In this document: positions 19,406 through 54,421 of the stretch, in pieces | Layout of the letters: every line of letters begins with the position of its first letter | Numbering within the stretch: position 1 is the stretch's first letter | Assembly (NCBI GenBank): GCA_021513695.1 | Contig: CP084166.1 | Coordinates: 2,976,001 to 3,040,000, forward strand | Length of the DNA stretch: 64,000 nucleotides | Direction: 5' to 3' | From: Candidatus Heimdallarchaeum aukensis | GTDB taxonomy: Archaea; Asgardarchaeota; Heimdallarchaeia; Heimdallarchaeales; Heimdallarchaeaceae | Translations under genes and position numbers: made by a program | Notes under the pieces: generated by a model | The model's input: only the letters and a program-made list of their open reading frames with translations | Databases searched by the model: none | Told to the model about the DNA's origin: nothing

Positions 19406-19798
19406 ATGAGTTCAACAAATTTCTCTGATGAAAAAGAAGTAAAAGAAAAAATCAAATCTCTCGTTCCATTAGATAAAAAACTTTCTCCAGTTTTACCCAA
19501 ACATGTGAGTGGAACTGTTAAGTGCTACATTGATGGTTGTAATAAACAATCATATTACACGCTTGGAGCTTTATTACCAAGTGTTTGGTTTACTCAAGAA
19601 ATAAAGCAGAAGCTAGTTCCTGTAATTGTTACTTCTTGTTTAGAGCATAGAAATGCCCTGATTGATAATCTCCCAGAAAAAACTGTTTCAGTTATAATTC
19701 GAGATGTTTCTCGGGATTCTTTTGAAATTGTTTCTGATATGCTTAAGCAAGCTTTAATCTCGAAAGAAGATGAATTAATAGTTTTCTATAGTTCCTGA
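19406..19798 (+). CDS. small hypothetical protein
   Basis: ORF 19346-19798; internal Met at 19406, preceded by GGGGA, avoids overlap with the upstream gene. Contains CYIDGC…C…H. Confidence 0.35.
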   Translation: MSSTNFSDEKEVKEKIKSLVPLDKKLSPVLPKHVSGTVKCYIDGCNKQSYYTLGALLPSVWFTQEIKQKLVPVIVTSCLEHRNALIDNLPEKTVSVIIRDVSRDSFEIVSDMLKQALISKEDELIVFYSS

Positions 19799-22395
19799 AT
19801 TTTTGGATTTTCTATTCTTTTTCCAATATTCTTTGATGTTTTTTCTATTTCTATTTCTTTCAAAACTGAAGATAATCTTTTTACAGCTTCTAAGCTGTGA
19901 ACAATCTGATCTAACCAAGAATAAATGTCACCAGGGTAAACTTGAATGTTCAAATTTTTTCTTATCTCTGTTGATATTCTAGTAGGATTGTATCCATTTA
20001 ATCTATAATTAACAATGATTTTGGAAAAAGTCTTCTCACCGCAATCACAAAAAGGTTTTTCAGGACAATCGCATACAAATATTTCTTTAGTCCATTTTGA
20101 AAAAGTGTCTAATATGAATGAACTGGGTTTTCTATCTATACCCCACGATTCACCAGAATACAAATCAAGAATTGCGCCTGAGAAAACACTAGTAGATATT
20201 GTTGACTTTAATAACCGTTCTACTTCTGCTTGCAATCTAGAAGATAAATAAGCAGCAGTAAAAGGTCTAATAGAAACAGCTAAATCTAAAACTAACTCTT
20301 TACTTTTGATATTTTTCTGCCTTCTCTTAATTTCTTGAACTAAGCGTAAGGCAAAAGGAGGGGCTAGGAAAGATAGAGAAGTAGCTTTTCCTAATTTTGT
20401 AGGATAAATGGTTTTATCTTTAAATTCGAGCATTTCCATTTTTACTAAATCTTTTATAATGTTGCTTAACTTGTTTGTTCTTCCGAGCAAGTTTGAAAAT
20501 ATCATTTTATCTCTTGTATCAATTTTAACTTTGGAAACAGCATTAATTATAGCGAGTACTTCTTCTTGTTCTTCTATTGTATCTAAAACTGGTTCTACGG
20601 GTTCTATCGGTTGTGTAAGTAATTTGAAGGCAATTTGCTCCTCTGTTAAATCTTGTCTAGAGTAAATTTTTCTTCCTGGTTCAACTAATAAGTAAACTTT
20701 ACCTTTATCATGAAACCCAAATCTTCCAGCTCTTCCTAACATTTGATGGAATTCTGCAACTGTTAACCATTCTGCCCCCATAGCTAAATTCTCAAAAATA
20801 ACTAGAGAAGCCGGAAAATCTACTCCAGCTCCTAAAGCAATAGTAGTAACAACAGTGGAAAAAGCTCCTGTTTCAAATTTACTTTCTATTCTTTTTCTTT
20901 GTGAGTAAGTTAATCCAGCATGATAATGTGTTGCTCTAACTCCTTTTTTAGTTAATAGACTGGCTATCTTTTCGCATCCTTTCCTTGAATTTGTAAAAAC
21001 TAAAGTCTGTCCTTTATATCCCATTGAAGACTTTACTCTTTCTTCTTTTCTGCAGAGATCAATCAGAAAATTAATTCTTTGTTCTTCAGAATCAGTAAGG
21101 ATTACATGTCTTTCTAGAGGAATAGGACGATCAGTATAAATTACAGGTTTAGAATTTAATTCCTTTGCCAGTTCTTTTGGGTTGCCAATTGTTGCTGAAA
21201 GATAAATAAATTGAGCCCTTGGAAAAAGAGCTTTTAATCTAGTGATTAAACCATTTAGCCTAAACCCTCTCTCTTTTGCCATTAACATCTGAATTTCATC
21301 AATACAAATAGTACCAACATTTCCCAATTCTTTAGCTCTTCCATCCCTAAGAACAAAATCAAGTGCTTCATACGTAGCAACAATAATATCTGATTGTAAA
21401 CTCCCATCAACAATCGGTTTTTCAATGTCAGTTAGTATTCTACTCATACCTACTTTAATTGAAGTTTTAAAACCGATTTTACGATATCTTTTTCTAAATT
21501 GTTCATATTTCTGATTTGTAAGGGCAACTAATGGAGACAGATAGATAAATTTCTTTTTTTCTTTTATAAGATTGGTAATCCCAGCTAATTCTCCTATCAG
21601 AGTTTTTCCTGAAGAGGTTCCAGCTACAATTAACAAATCTTTTTTTTCTAACAACCCTGATTCAAGTGCGAGCTTCTGAGCTGGAAGAAAATTTTTCACT
21701 CCTTCTTTAATCAGAAGTTCTTTGAATCTTGAAGGAATTGTTTTTAGATCTTCTACTTTTAGTGAAATATCTGGTTTAGAGGCTCGAATAATATCGAATA
21801 ATGTACTTTCTTTGTCATTAATATTTGATTCAACACCTAAAGTTATAGAGTTTAAAACCTCATCTAAAGAACCCTTTCTTCGAGCTTGTTGTTCATAGAA
21901 TTTTATTATCCCTGCAGAAAAATTGATTGAAGTTCTTTTTATTTCAGTAATTAACTCTCGTCTAATGCACAATTTACAAATGCTTTTCCCCTTAAAACGA
22001 ACATTATCTTCTTCACTTAATTCAGTCCATTTTTGCTTATTTAAACAATATCTACAAATGTTTGCTATTTTTGGTTTTTTTATTTTAAAAGTATTAAAAT
22101 ATTCAATAAATCCTTTCTGGTCAAAGGGAAGATCACTTTTTTCTACAACTAAATATGATGCATTTTTTAGATCTTCTGTTGCTTCTTTAGGACGTATGTA
22201 TTTTACCGTGTTTCTTCCTAATTTTAAGTATTTATAAACTCGAAGAAGGTTTTTTTCGTAAATGAACTGAAGTCTGCAGTGTGCAACTGCTTTTTTGTCT
22301 TTTTTCCCAGAAATATAAAAGTAAATTATATCAGTTGACAGTTTTTCTTTATTAAAGTTAAATAACACAGCAATGTATGGTTTAGGAATTTTCAT
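19786..22395 (-). CDS. Ski2-like superfamily-2 DEAD/DEAH helicase with N- and C-terminal zinc-finger modules (ASH-Ski2-like)
   Basis: Walker A AGTSSGKT, DEIQ box (ICIDEIQML), motif III SAT. N-terminal CRYC…CKLC and C-terminal CDCPEKPFCDCGEK zinc clusters. Start moved to Met42 of the track ORF, downstream of the stop of the upstream gene at 22418. Confidence 0.8.
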   Translation of the reverse strand: MKIPKPYIAVLFNFNKEKLSTDIIYFYISGKKDKKAVAHCRLQFIYEKNLLRVYKYLKLGRNTVKYIRPKEATEDLKNASYLVVEKSDLPFDQKGFIEYFNTFKIKKPKIANICRYCLNKQKWTELSEEDNVRFKGKSICKLCIRRELITEIKRTSINFSAGIIKFYEQQARRKGSLDEVLNSITLGVESNINDKESTLFDIIRASKPDISLKVEDLKTIPSRFKELLIKEGVKNFLPAQKLALESGLLEKKDLLIVAGTSSGKTLIGELAGITNLIKEKKKFIYLSPLVALTNQKYEQFRKRYRKIGFKTSIKVGMSRILTDIEKPIVDGSLQSDIIVATYEALDFVLRDGRAKELGNVGTICIDEIQMLMAKERGFRLNGLITRLKALFPRAQFIYLSATIGNPKELAKELNSKPVIYTDRPIPLERHVILTDSEEQRINFLIDLCRKEERVKSSMGYKGQTLVFTNSRKGCEKIASLLTKKGVRATHYHAGLTYSQRKRIESKFETGAFSTVVTTIALGAGVDFPASLVIFENLAMGAEWLTVAEFHQMLGRAGRFGFHDKGKVYLLVEPGRKIYSRQDLTEEQIAFKLLTQPIEPVEPVLDTIEEQEEVLAIINAVSKVKIDTRDKMIFSNLLGRTNKLSNIIKDLVKMEMLEFKDKTIYPTKLGKATSLSFLAPPFALRLVQEIKRRQKNIKSKELVLDLAVSIRPFTAAYLSSRLQAEVERLLKSTISTSVFSGAILDLYSGESWGIDRKPSSFILDTFSKWTKEIFVCDCPEKPFCDCGEKTFSKIIVNYRLNGYNPTRISTEIRKNLNIQVYPGDIYSWLDQIVHSLEAVKRLSSVLKEIEIEKTSKNIGKRIENPKIQEL

Positions 22396-22417
22396 TAAAA
22401 TCACAAAGACTAAAAAA

Positions 22418-22900
22418 TTATGTTTTTGAAAAGTTATATCCACAAGTTGGGCAAAAATTGACATTAACACCAACTTTTTCTTCACAATGTGGGCATTCTT
22501 TAAATAGCGGAGAACCACAATATTTGCAGAATTTAGTTTGCTTTACTTCATTTTTACATGTTGGACACATTACAGTTTTTTCTTTTGTTTGACTAGCTGT
22601 TCTATCTACAGGAGTAGAAATTTGGGGTAAAGTTGTTGGAACATATTCTTGATATTTGCTTGATGAGGGTGGATATCTATCACTTTTTGCTGGTTCTATC
22701 TTGCTAATAGTAAGTTCTGGGTCTATTTTATGAAGAAAATTTTTGATATTTGTGTTAGATTCTATAGAAAGAGGTTTCCTTTTTTGGGCTAATAGGGCTA
22801 GCTTTAGATACTCTACTACATCTTCTTGTTCTGCTCCACAATGAGGGCAGACCTTTAACGATTCTTCAATTTCTTCCCAACAACTTAAACATTTTTTCAC
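22418..22900 (-). CDS. double zinc-ribbon protein (hypothetical)
   Basis: CLSC…CPHCG at N-terminus; CPTC…CKYCG…CPHC…CPTCG at C-terminus. Immediately upstream of, and co-oriented with, the helicase. Confidence 0.6.
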   Translation of the reverse strand: MKKCLSCWEEIEESLKVCPHCGAEQEDVVEYLKLALLAQKRKPLSIESNTNIKNFLHKIDPELTISKIEPAKSDRYPPSSSKYQEYVPTTLPQISTPVDRTASQTKEKTVMCPTCKNEVKQTKFCKYCGSPLFKECPHCEEKVGVNVNFCPTCGYNFSKT

Positions 22901-51647: not shown

Positions 51648-52022
51648 GTGTTAACTATGTTCACTTATGAGCTAGAGGACGAATACTTAACATTCATCAA
51701 AGAGAGCATAAAGGAGCATATATTTCAGTTACTCGATGAAAATAATGGAAAAATATCGTTAATGAAATTATTTGAAAAAATGATACACATAAATAATCAT
51801 TATTTGGCACAGAAATTAAGAATAGATGCGGCATTACATGAATTAGAATTGCAAGGGATAATTGAAATAAAAAATAAGCAAATAAGAAGGTTATCAATGG
51901 GTGTATTTGATGAAACTGGCTTTAAAGAAGAATATGTAAAAAACTTTTACGAAAAGAGGAAAAAGGATGAAGAAATAAGGAGAATGATTAGAGCTCTTAG
52001 TCAAACTATACTTTCAGAATAA
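51648..52022 (+). CDS. hypothetical small protein, possible winged-helix
   Basis: 124 aa, helical, no clear motif. Confidence 0.4.
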   Translation: MLTMFTYELEDEYLTFIKESIKEHIFQLLDENNGKISLMKLFEKMIHINNHYLAQKLRIDAALHELELQGIIEIKNKQIRRLSMGVFDETGFKEEYVKNFYEKRKKDEEIRRMIRALSQTILSE

Positions 52023-52071: not shown

Positions 52072-52950
52072 ATGTCCGAAACAAATATACCTCGAATTGT
52101 TCTGGGTTCTGTATTGTATCCCTATTTTGAGCGCATCCCACAGGATCACATACTAAGAAACAAAGAAGAACTTGTTAAGTTGGTTGAGCGGTGTTATCAT
52201 GCAGGAGCAAAAGCGTTTTTATTTTATCTTTATAACAAAGAAATTGTTGAAATAGCAAACAGTATTACTGAAAGTATTCCTGATATTTTGTCAATGTTTC
52301 TCATAAAGTTTGACAACATGGATTACATATTAAACCTTCTTAAAGAACTCAAGAAAAAGCCCTATATTCTATTTTTGTCTTCTGAAATAAGTGATCAGAG
52401 AGACTCAGAACTTATACAACGGTTTAGGAAAGCTTTGAGCAAACATGCTGAACATATAGGCATATATTCAAGAGAGCCAATAGGCACAGTTTCCCAGTTA
52501 ATTACAAGTAATGGGGATATTGAGCATTTTCTAATACCTTTTAATTTGTTAGGTTATGGTGTCCAAAATAGAGCTTTACTTGAGATGATTGTTAACTCTT
52601 CTGAAAATATTTACTATAGCTCTAATCCCGTAGCTGATGGTAAACTAAAAGTAAGGCAGGCTTTAGAATATATTTCGAATCATAATGTCAGAGGAATTTT
52701 AGTAGAATTAGAAGACGAAGAAGACATGTTAGAAACAATAAAGTACGGGAGATATTTCTTAGAAACAAAAGATTTCTTACAAATAACGCTTGAATTTGAA
52801 GATATTACAGATGTATGTGAGTATTGTGGAATAGGAATGGAAAGATATTATCCACCAAGCAAGAGTGGAGGAAGTTACTTCTACTGTCCTTCATGTGGAC
52901 ATACAAAACAAATAACAGAAGTAACATACCAAGAGGAAACAGAAAAATAA
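52072..52950 (+). CDS. hypothetical protein with C-terminal zinc ribbon
   Basis: C-terminal CEYCG…CPSCGH; no other motifs. Confidence 0.5.
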   Translation: MSETNIPRIVLGSVLYPYFERIPQDHILRNKEELVKLVERCYHAGAKAFLFYLYNKEIVEIANSITESIPDILSMFLIKFDNMDYILNLLKELKKKPYILFLSSEISDQRDSELIQRFRKALSKHAEHIGIYSREPIGTVSQLITSNGDIEHFLIPFNLLGYGVQNRALLEMIVNSSENIYYSSNPVADGKLKVRQALEYISNHNVRGILVELEDEEDMLETIKYGRYFLETKDFLQITLEFEDITDVCEYCGIGMERYYPPSKSGGSYFYCPSCGHTKQITEVTYQEETEK

Positions 52951-53204
52951 TTTCAATTGGAAAAAATAAAAACAAAGATAAAACTTGAGTTAAGAAATAG
53001 TAAAGTAACTTTTATTTAATTAGCAAAGATATCTATTCTTAAAGATAATATTACTGTTATCACTTTAAAATATATTTTTGTAATTTTCAAAAAAATAGAA
53101 ACGATTATCTATGTTATTAGCTGAACTTCAATATCTGACTAATTGATTATATTAATAAAGTACAGTGTTTTCTCTTTGTTAGATAGGAAAGAGTGTTGAT
53201 ACGT

Positions 53205-53792
53205 ATGGCTAGATGTAAATATTGTAACAAAATAATTCCCGATGAAGCTGAATTTTGTCCTTACTGCGGAAAAAAGAAGCCTATAAGAAAAATTGTGGGT
53301 GAAATCGAAGACATAACAAAAAAAGTTAGAGAAAAAATCGAAAAAAGAATTCCCACTATAAGGAAACAAGCTTTAGAAATACTAGACAGATTGTCATCTA
53401 AAGCAAAACAAGCTTCTCTTCCAGATTTTGTGGATAGAACAAAGGTTATCTCAATTCTTAATGATTTGAAAGCTAAATTAGATACTGAAACTGATCAATC
53501 CAAGATACAAGAATACTCTGAATGGGCTAATTTGATTGAGCAGACGATTAGTGGAGAAAATTGTATAATTTGTTATCAACCATTTGATATTCATAAAGAT
53601 GGTCATTTAGACGTCTCTCTCTGCCCTTCATGTCATTATGCCGCTCACGTTAATCATTTTGAAGCTTGGTTAGACAAAAAAGCTGTATGTCCAATATGTA
53701 AGGCTTCAATATCTAAAAATCAACTAGTTCGAGGGTATATTCAACATAAAGAAGGTGAAATTGTTTTTACTTCTTCAGAAAAACAATTTTAA
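53205..53792 (+). CDS. zinc-ribbon + RING/PHD-type (C4H2C2) zinc-finger protein
   Basis: N-terminal CKYC…CPYCG; C-terminal CIICYQPF-x16-CPSC-HYAAH-VNH-x10-CPICK matches C-x2-C-x(9-21)-C-x2-C-x4-H-x2-H/C-x10-C-x2-C treble-clef spacing. Confidence 0.6.
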   Translation: MARCKYCNKIIPDEAEFCPYCGKKKPIRKIVGEIEDITKKVREKIEKRIPTIRKQALEILDRLSSKAKQASLPDFVDRTKVISILNDLKAKLDTETDQSKIQEYSEWANLIEQTISGENCIICYQPFDIHKDGHLDVSLCPSCHYAAHVNHFEAWLDKKAVCPICKASISKNQLVRGYIQHKEGEIVFTSSEKQF

Positions 53793-53815
53793 ATCCTCTT
53801 TTTTTTATAGTTTTA

Positions 53816-54421
53816 ATGATAGTTAATAAATCTGAACTTGCAAGGATTTTAGTTTCAAATAATATCCTCAAATTTGGCTCTTTTACATTAAAATCTGGGG
53901 CAAAAAGCTGGTTCTATGTTGATTTAAGACTCATTCCTTCCATTCCTGAAGTATTCAACTATGTTATTGAATCATATATTAAAAAAATAAATGAATTAGA
54001 CACAGTAGATGCTGTTGCAGGAATAGCTGTTGCAGGAATACCTTTTTCCTCTGTTATAGGTTATAAACTTAATTTGCCTTCTTTAATAGTAAGAAAACAA
54101 TCAAAAGATTATGGATTACAGAAAATGGTCGAAGGGAGAGCTAAAGAGAAAGCAATTATTTTACTTATTGATGATGTAATTACCACTGGAGGAAGTAAAA
54201 CCCCTGCTATTCTCGCTCTTCGAGAAAATAACTATGTGGTAAAGGATCTTTTAGTACTTATAGATAGAAGTGAAGGAAAAGCAGAAGAATTAAAGAAACA
54301 AGGGGTTACAGTCCATTCTGTAGCTAAGATAGAAGAAATTTTTGAAGAATGCTTGAATTTATCTGATGAAGACATATCTCCAAATATTAAAGAAATAATA
54401 AGAAATAATTTCAAAAACTAA
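53816..54421 (+). CDS. pyrE: orotate phosphoribosyltransferase
   Basis: KFGSFTLKSGAKSWFYVDLR; PRPP-binding loop LLIDDVITTGGS. Confidence 0.8.
   Translation: MIVNKSELARILVSNNILKFGSFTLKSGAKSWFYVDLRLIPSIPEVFNYVIESYIKKINELDTVDAVAGIAVAGIPFSSVIGYKLNLPSLIVRKQSKDYGLQKMVEGRAKEKAIILLIDDVITTGGSKTPAILALRENNYVVKDLLVLIDRSEGKAEELKKQGVTVHSVAKIEEIFEECLNLSDEDISPNIKEIIRNNFKN

Follow-up and report, generated by a model that had tools for sequence, protein, structure and literature searches.

Does Candidatus Heimdallarchaeum aukensis, an Asgard archaeon, encode a RING-type ubiquitin ligase (E3) away from any ubiquitin operon? The question is raised by a gene in a 64,000-nucleotide stretch of contig CP084166.1 (positions 2,976,001 to 3,040,000), the whole of which we call the window. 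The gene lies upstream of pyrE and its product had been described from the letters of the DNA alone (the sequence-only reading) as a RING/PHD-type zinc finger fused to an N-terminal zinc ribbon, and as a possible uncharacterised E3-like protein. On the evidence given here we assign a probability of roughly 0.6 to the reading of this gene as one for a modular E3 ubiquitin ligase of the RING type, the ligase activity itself being a prediction from sequence.

The open reading frame (ORF) in question, at 53193..53792 on the forward strand, is present in the program-made ORF list just as the sequence-only reading had it, but its start is better placed at the ATG at 53205. Because the NCBI protein model and the relatives begin with MAR or MAH followed by CKYC, this ATG is most likely the real start codon, and the GTG at 53193 is probably an in-frame upstream alternative that is not used. 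The coding sequence of the RING protein is then 53205..53792 (+), 195 amino acids with the stop codon included. This assignment is based on the ORF list and on a 195-residue NCBI protein of the same species, 100% identical in a large-database search, that carries the label 'zinc-ribbon domain-containing protein'. Residues were numbered from the ATG at 53205. From the N to the C terminus, the protein is laid out as a zinc ribbon, a three-helix bundle, a RING domain and a beta-hairpin. All 10 of its cysteines stand in CxxC pairs, two pairs N-terminal and three C-terminal.

The RING domain and its putative E2-binding surface

The RING domain spans residues 118 to 169 (53556..53711, +). Its eight ligands, C120, C123 / C140, C143 / H148, H151 / C162, C165, lie in the motif CIIC-x16-CPSC-HYAAH-VN-H-x10-CPIC; both this string and the C-x2-C / C-x2-C / H-x2-H / C-x2-C spacing had been read exactly. 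The motif had also been assigned to the C-terminal 50 residues, and this part did not hold: of the 195 residues the motif occupies 120 to 165, and another 30 lie beyond it. When this Cys- and His-rich sequence was shuffled 200,000 times, only 19 of the shuffles fitted a generic eight-ligand RING/PHD pattern, and the RING protein was the sole match to that pattern among the 267 six-frame ORFs of the window.

How well is this arrangement of ligands kept among relatives? A word-indexed search returned only four close relatives (51 to 87% identity), all from Heimdallarchaeaceae. When 1.84 billion representative proteins were searched exhaustively with a profile, 350 matched at E ≤ 1e-3; among the matches listed, about 35 are proteins of 150 to 260 amino acids with a CxxC..CxxC ribbon upstream of the finger. 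Our family alignment comprised 24 ribbon-plus-finger proteins with 20 to 87% identity to the query, and all eight ligands are invariant in it. P163 is also invariant and W155 nearly so. The histidine that directly follows the second pair (H144, in CPSC-H) varies among the relatives, and the ligand set is therefore C4H2C2. The family pattern, CxxC-x(10-22)-CxxC-x4-HxxH-x(10-11)-CPxC, defines a C4H2C2 signature that was found in 73 of 157 retrieved proteins, with lengths from 79 to 755 amino acids.

The profile searches that the sequence-only reading had proposed as a check matched RING E3 ligases, with no PHD model among the top 25 Pfam families. Pfam zf-RING_2 aligned to residues 119 to 166 of the window protein (E 2e-4, 21.9 bits) and matched every one of the 24 family members at E ≤ 0.01 (best, 2.2e-7). 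Several relatives carry a precomputed PF13639 assignment, and some are named RING finger proteins by NCBI. A second profile, Prok-RING_1 (PF14446), is common to 14 of the 24 relatives at E ≤ 0.01 (best, 4.3e-7); the window protein falls below its cut-off (14.2 versus 29.1 bits), with an alignment to profile positions 4 to 31 of 54 that covers only the first half of the finger. Against the sequences of solved structures in the PDB, the single sequence found RING-H2 ligases first (AtRMR at 7.6e-4, then RNF24 and EL5). The family profile gave 43 PDB matches at E ≤ 0.01, of which 42 are RING domains, almost all from E3 ligases; the best were EL5 (1e-8), RNF24 (5e-8) and the Listerin RING (4e-7), followed by RNF165, RNF4 and RNF38 at about 1e-6. 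The Listerin match is collinear ligand for ligand, with the spacing CxxC-x4-HxxC. The sole non-RING match was a weak one (0.0034) to the ArnA zinc ribbon.

An AlphaFold model built from the 24-sequence alignment has a mean predicted local distance difference test (pLDDT) score of 82.9 and supersedes an earlier, poor run with four close sequences (pLDDT 60). In this model the finger reaches a pLDDT of 91 to 95, and its core consists of a strand (residues 135 to 139), a second strand (146 to 148) and a helix (149 to 158), the beta-beta-alpha arrangement of RING domains. Foldseek matched the model to the RING domains of Rad18, TRIM37 and TRAF6 and to the U-boxes of Prp19 and CHIP. The cross-brace topology for which a structure prediction had been suggested is thus consistent with the model. 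Together with the profiles, these data give good support to the prediction of a C-terminal cross-brace RING finger of C4H2C2 type with two zinc ions, in which C120, C123, H148 and H151 would form zinc site 1 and C140, C143, C162 and C165 zinc site 2.

Does the domain also carry the residues of a working ligase? In competent RINGs, as judged from the c-Cbl, RNF4, BIRC7 and RNF38 complexes, a hydrophobic residue precedes the second Cys and a Trp stands in the helix; a Pro follows the seventh ligand and a basic linchpin follows the eighth. The window protein has I122, W155 and P163 at the putative contact positions for the ubiquitin-conjugating enzyme (E2), and K166 at the linchpin position. These features are kept throughout the C4H2C2 domains: the residue preceding the second Cys is Val or Ile in 70 of 73, a Trp stands four residues past the sixth ligand in 69, the Pro after the seventh ligand is present in all 73, and the residue after the eighth is Arg or Lys in 58. 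For the small RING E3 of Caldiarchaeum subterraneum, ubiquitylation reconstituted with E1, E2 and E3 was lost in the I30Q mutant and impaired in W58A and R69A (PMC5654768). Three of the contact and linchpin positions of our family correspond to I30, W58 and R69 of that protein and are conserved.

The family profile also retrieved two small C4H2C2 proteins, P0118 (82 amino acids) and P0150 (79 amino acids), whose alignments with the window RING take in all eight ligands and show 28% and 38% identity, respectively (pairwise BLASTP E 6e-11 and 3e-12). Their genes adjoin those for ubiquitin, an E2 of the UQ_con family (HPN...C) and a ubiquitin-activating enzyme (E1) of the ThiF family, and the loci sit inside Snf7/Vps4/ESCRT-II/UEV clusters. 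A cascade of E1, E2 and RING E3 from such a Helarchaeial cluster ubiquitylates UEV-Vps23 in vitro (bioRxiv 10.1101/2023.07.25.550441). We therefore place the window RING in the same class as archaeal E3s that have experimentally tested counterparts. The conserved contact residues and the small-RING homology likewise favour the earlier suggestion of an uncharacterised Asgard E3-like protein, as far as sequence can speak to function.

As a separate observation on these clusters, two loci (L009:1322-8496 and L011:1-8123) compactly hold two Snf7 genes, Vps4, ESCRT-II, a UEV/E2, the small RING, ubiquitin, E2 and E1. The second of them is a 99% match to a Helarchaeota metagenome-assembled genome (MAG), and its ubiquitin extends past the GG (GGFLQLAF), making it a pro-ubiquitin.

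If the protein is a ligase, how might it work? A surface of the RING made up of I122, W155 and P163 would bind an E2 charged with ubiquitin, the product of a gene at another place in the genome, and K166, right behind the last Cys, would act as the linchpin that locks the E2~ubiquitin conjugate in a closed and reactive state. Ubiquitin would then move directly from the E2 onto a substrate lysine, with the ribbon and the helical bundle holding the substrate. A 292-residue protein encoded immediately upstream could be an adaptor or a substrate. More speculatively, the protein may dimerise, as RNF4, RNF8 and Rad18 do, through its flanking helix and C-terminal beta-hairpin; the idea comes only from profile alignments that continue into the helices beside the RINGs of RNF8, ZNRF3 and RNF165.

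Rival roles and the gene neighbourhood

Several observations weigh against the ligase reading. Some RING-fold domains are structural, for example those of GATOR2, intraflagellar transport (IFT) proteins and alpha-COP. The zf-RING_2 score of the window protein, 21.9 bits, lies below the gathering threshold of 27.3, and the Foldseek E values are modest (best, 8.5e-3), the domain being short. The interleaved pairing of the ligands is a prediction from the fold and the collinearity of the profiles. Neither ubiquitin, E1, E2 nor JAB was found among the ORFs of the 64-kb window, in a search of limited sensitivity with five eukaryotic and bacterial seed sequences (ubiquitin, UBE2D2, UBC13, MoeB and Rpn11), and no ubiquitin-system gene lies within 6 to 8 kb of any full-length relative. 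We also identified no E2 of Ca. H. aukensis, with a mixed Asgard and human E2 profile that matched almost only eukaryotic E2s. A scan of the genome collection for E2s of the Helarchaeota type returned Hel-, Jord-, Frey-, Baldr-, Borr- and Sif-type loci only and no Heimdallarchaeum, and ubiquitin goes unmentioned in the paper on the Heimdallarchaeum genome. In favour of the ligase reading, on the other hand, the related Heimdallarchaeota AB125 has been reported to encode ubiquitin and two E2s with catalytic Cys residues (PMC9192718).

A first rival reading is that the fold is a RING and its role is not that of a ligase: a zinc-stabilised module for protein or nucleic-acid interaction that never engages an E2. 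It could, for instance, form a complex with the product of the neighbouring 292-residue gene, to which the RING gene is tightly coupled in two relatives (a 14-nucleotide overlap in L028 and a 5-nucleotide gap in L029). That no full-length member is linked to a ubiquitin-system gene fits such a role, as do weak sub-threshold matches to the RING-like ribbons of IFT122 and of GATOR2-type proteins. However, the conservation of the contact and linchpin positions (70/73, 69/73, 73/73 and 58/73) exceeds what a structural role needs, and the same signature recurs in the small RINGs of the ubiquitin/E2/E1 clusters. We therefore regard a purely structural module as unlikely.

What are the neighbours themselves? 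The gene immediately upstream (52072..52950, +) encodes an orphan of 292 amino acids with a C-terminal CxxC..CxxC ribbon. It matched nothing in Pfam, NCBIfam or the PDB, also when a profile of five sequences was used. The orphan is 50 to 73% identical in four other Heimdallarchaeaceae genomes and is better conserved than the RING protein; throughout Heimdallarchaeaceae its gene comes immediately before that for the RING protein. Besides the two tightly coupled loci, the genes are separated by 20 nucleotides in L003, 66 in L001 and 254 in the window. These data make the orphan the best candidate for a functional (operon) partner of the RING protein. Further upstream, a gene for a 124-residue protein (51648-52022, +) is conserved in L001, L003 and L004. 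Its product shows only weak, sub-threshold winged-helix matches (MCM4_WHD, E 4e-3; MarR, E 0.3) and may be a small DNA-binding protein, to judge from its sequence. In Hodarchaeales and Kariarchaeaceae the genes upstream of the RING gene are different ones, and their products show no relationship to the 292- and 124-residue proteins.

Downstream, the gene at 53816..54421 (+) is pyrE, encoding orotate phosphoribosyltransferase (TIGR00336, 133.7 bits versus a cut-off of 106.8). The sequence-only reading had named this neighbour and its strand correctly; the gap between the two genes is 23 nucleotides (53793-53815) rather than 24. Beyond pyrE, pyrF, pyrC, pyrK and pyrD lie on the opposite strand. 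The order of an orphan of about 285 to 299 residues, the RING gene and pyrE, with a divergent pyrF, is kept in five Heimdallarchaeaceae genomes, and it holds even where the RING protein has only 34 to 37% identity and the outer genes differ.

Could the protein, then, be a pyrimidine-biosynthesis factor, co-expressed with pyrE and regulating or assembling the pathway with or without ubiquitin? The conserved gene order speaks for this, and so do the RING-pyrE gaps of 23 to 73 nucleotides. Orthologues of the same architecture nevertheless lie away from pyrE in Hodarchaeales and Kariarchaeaceae, and pyrE is a neighbour of the RING gene in Heimdallarchaeaceae only; because these orthologues lie in other contexts, the link to pyrE is weaker than the link to the orphan. 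In addition, pyrE may have its own promoter, a suggestion drawn from two sequence elements: a TATA-like TTTTAAAT (53787-53794) overlaps the RING stop codon about 26 nucleotides before the pyrE ATG, and a run of eight T residues (53799-53806) follows that stop codon. The pyrE mRNA may be leaderless, and transcription of the RING gene may end at the T run. On balance a dedicated role in pyrimidine synthesis appears improbable.

The other contexts differ among themselves. In Hodarchaeales, the RING orthologue stands between a C1orf109/CINP-like gene and arcTGT, near a Brr2/Ski2-like helicase; Kariarchaeaceae orthologues are found in yet another context. At the three Hodarchaeales loci (L005:7187-7810, L006:7178-7810 and L007:1438-2070) the RING gene is just downstream of the CA109-like gene, whose product matches the Pfam family of the C1orf109 ribosome-biogenesis factor above threshold (E 9e-11), and the helicase gene is directly upstream of the CA109-like gene. 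CINP-like proteins were reported in Asgard archaea in 2026 (PMC12962969).

Further observations concern other genes. In a Heimdallarchaeaceae MAG, a homologue of ARPC4 (Arp2/3 complex subunit 4, PF05856) lies beside pyrF (L028:8153-8638). In the window, a gene at 22418-22900 (-) encodes a 160-residue protein with three zinc ribbons (DZR, E 1e-14), and directly downstream of it a gene at 19786-22518 (-) encodes a 910-residue DEAD/Helicase_C helicase with a C-terminal DUF5814. As listed, these two ORFs overlap by about 100 nucleotides.

Other folds for the finger, and the flanking domains

The sequence-only reading left the finger between RING and PHD. The RING half of that label is borne out by the zf-RING_2 matches of the whole family, the PDB profile search and the model; the PHD half is not. 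Read as a PHD finger, the domain would recognise a peptide tail, such as that of an archaeal histone, rather than an E2. Ligand pairs two and three are indeed spaced CxxC-x4-Hxx[C/H], as in PHD fingers, but the identical spacing is found in the RING of Listerin, a true E3. No PHD model was among the 25 best Pfam matches of the protein or the top 25 families of the 24 relatives, where RING profiles are present, and all significant PDB matches of the C-terminal domain are RINGs. The sixth ligand is an invariant His, which gives C4H2C2 and not C4HC3. The PHD consensus has a Trp two residues before ligand seven; here K-A-V precedes C162, and the Trp is instead at the RING-H2 position after ligand six. 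The helix predicted after ligand five is also as in RINGs. A PHD-type reader thus seems very improbable.

Least credible is a pair of independent, DZR-like zinc ribbons or knuckles without a cross-brace, the case that the sequence-only reading had named as its own refutation and that the C terminus does not bear out. For it, weak sub-threshold matches to C140..C165 (zinc_ribbon_16, E 1.4e-3; FmdB CxxC_CxxC, E 0.04) and the genuine ribbon at the N terminus could be cited, but the RING profiles span all eight ligands collinearly, the confident model has RING topology with RING and U-box matches, and the invariant H148 and H151 have no use in a two-ribbon arrangement. We rejected both the PHD and the double-ribbon readings of the C terminus on the profiles, the model and the invariant His residues.

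The ribbon and the helical linker described by the sequence-only reading for the N-terminal part are both present, according to Pfam and the AlphaFold model. The ribbon (residues 2-24; 53208..53276, +) has the ligands C4, C7, C18 and C21 in the pattern CxxC-x10-CxxC. Residues 1 to 25 match Pfam Zn_Ribbon_1 above threshold (26.9 bits versus 25) and DZR at 27.3 to 30.2 bits (cut-off, 27.3); this is the only part of the protein that qualifies as a ribbon by these profiles. C18, C21 and G22 are invariant in the family alignment and C4 and C7 nearly so, and residues 1 to 25 are modelled as two short beta-hairpins. A separate one-zinc ribbon at the N terminus therefore has good support.

The linker is a three-helix bundle (residues 34-114; 53304..53546, +) with helices at 34 to 69, 78 to 94 and 98 to 114, in which L85 is nearly invariant. 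It is presumed to be a module for substrate or partner binding or for oligomerisation. At the other end, the C-terminal beta-hairpin (residues 175-190, LVRGYIQHKEGEIVFT; 53727..53774, +) has model strands at 175 to 182 and 185 to 190. It is kept in P0002 to P0004 and P0006 to P0012, is missing from more distant members, and is confined to the Heimdallarchaeaceae subfamily.

Relation to known E3s and meaning for the Asgard archaea

Which known ligases does the protein resemble? The archaeal small RING finger protein (srfp) of ubiquitin operons, known from Caldiarchaeum subterraneum and as the Helarchaeial RING E3 of the ESCRT-ubiquitin cluster, has a RING homologous to that of the window, and the srfp-type P0118 and P0150 have an identical C4H2C2 signature. 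The Caldiarchaeum srfp has also been noted to carry an additional Cys in front of its canonical third ligand (PMC5654768). The two differ in size and setting: srfp consists of a RING alone, of about 80 amino acids, whereas the 195-residue window protein adds a ribbon, a bundle and a hairpin; and srfp is encoded beside ubiquitin, E1 and E2, whereas the window family never is, its neighbours being the orphan and pyrE, with the loci of eight relatives showing the same or unrelated contexts. The window protein, neither small nor operon-encoded, is not an srfp in the strict sense.

Among solved structures, the best sequence matches are RING-H2 E3s of the ATL/RNF24/RNF38/Arkadia type (PDB 1iym, which is EL5, and 2ep4, 4v3k and 7p2k). 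They share with the window RING the hydrophobic residue before the second Cys, the H-x2-[C/H]-x3-W-L segment, the CPxC-R/K end and the beta-beta-alpha core. The ligands are set differently. The fourth ligand of the window family (the second Cys of CPxC) aligns with the third of RING-H2, and the His that serves RING-H2 as fourth ligand is replaced by an upstream Cys (C-x2-C versus C-x-H). The sixth ligand is His in the window family and Cys in RING-H2, giving C4H2C2 versus C3H2C3. The RING of Listerin (Ltn1) spaces pairs two and three as the window family does (CxxC-x4-Hxx[C/H]) and continues with W and CPLCR, but has Cys at ligand six in place of His, and it belongs to a protein of about 1,700 amino acids with unrelated N-terminal domains that acts in ribosome quality control.

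All named members of the family are from Asgard archaea (Heimdallarchaeum, Heimdallarchaeaceae, Kariarchaeaceae and Hodarchaeales). One record is labelled Thorarchaeota, and its gene context is the Hodarchaeales one. Most matches are without a name, and the family is likely restricted to Asgard archaea. Freyarchaeota and Hermodarchaeota have other architectures with the same RING signature, and among the C4H2C2 proteins one is a leucine-rich-repeat protein by its JGI label and another an Ig-like domain-containing protein by its NCBI label. Targeted literature searches found no published description of the architecture of ribbon, three-helix bundle and RING. One entry from the word-indexed search, P0005, resembled a shorter relative but was dropped. 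In this 131-residue protein from a 6-kb contig in ENA, the family ribbon (roughly the first 50 residues) is joined to the C-terminal domain of ribosomal protein S3 (PF00189), which makes it a probable chimera of assembly or gene calling.

What would a ligase of this kind mean for these organisms? RING E3s confer substrate specificity on the ubiquitin system of eukaryotes, which have hundreds of them, and Heimdallarchaeia are the Asgard class often placed nearest to eukaryotes. To our knowledge, the archaeal RING E3s studied so far are single small proteins encoded inside ubiquitin operons. That RING E3s exist in Asgard archaea is established, some orthologues of the window protein are already labelled RING finger proteins by NCBI, and our results overturn nothing. 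As a tentative proposal, with the odds against it, a stand-alone RING E3 may have left the ubiquitin operon and become translationally coupled to an orphan adaptor or substrate in Heimdallarchaeaceae, as part of a diversification of E3s in archaea before eukaryogenesis; the thought of diversification comes from the C4H2C2 RINGs that are also fused to leucine-rich repeats, Ig-like domains and other modules in other Asgard lineages. Because the family has extra domains, spans Heimdallarchaeaceae, Kariarchaeaceae and Hodarchaeales, and sits away from ubiquitin genes, the ligase reading, if true, would suggest that close relatives of eukaryotes have a dispersed ubiquitin system with several ligases; the RING protein and its 292-residue neighbour offer a concrete, testable pair.

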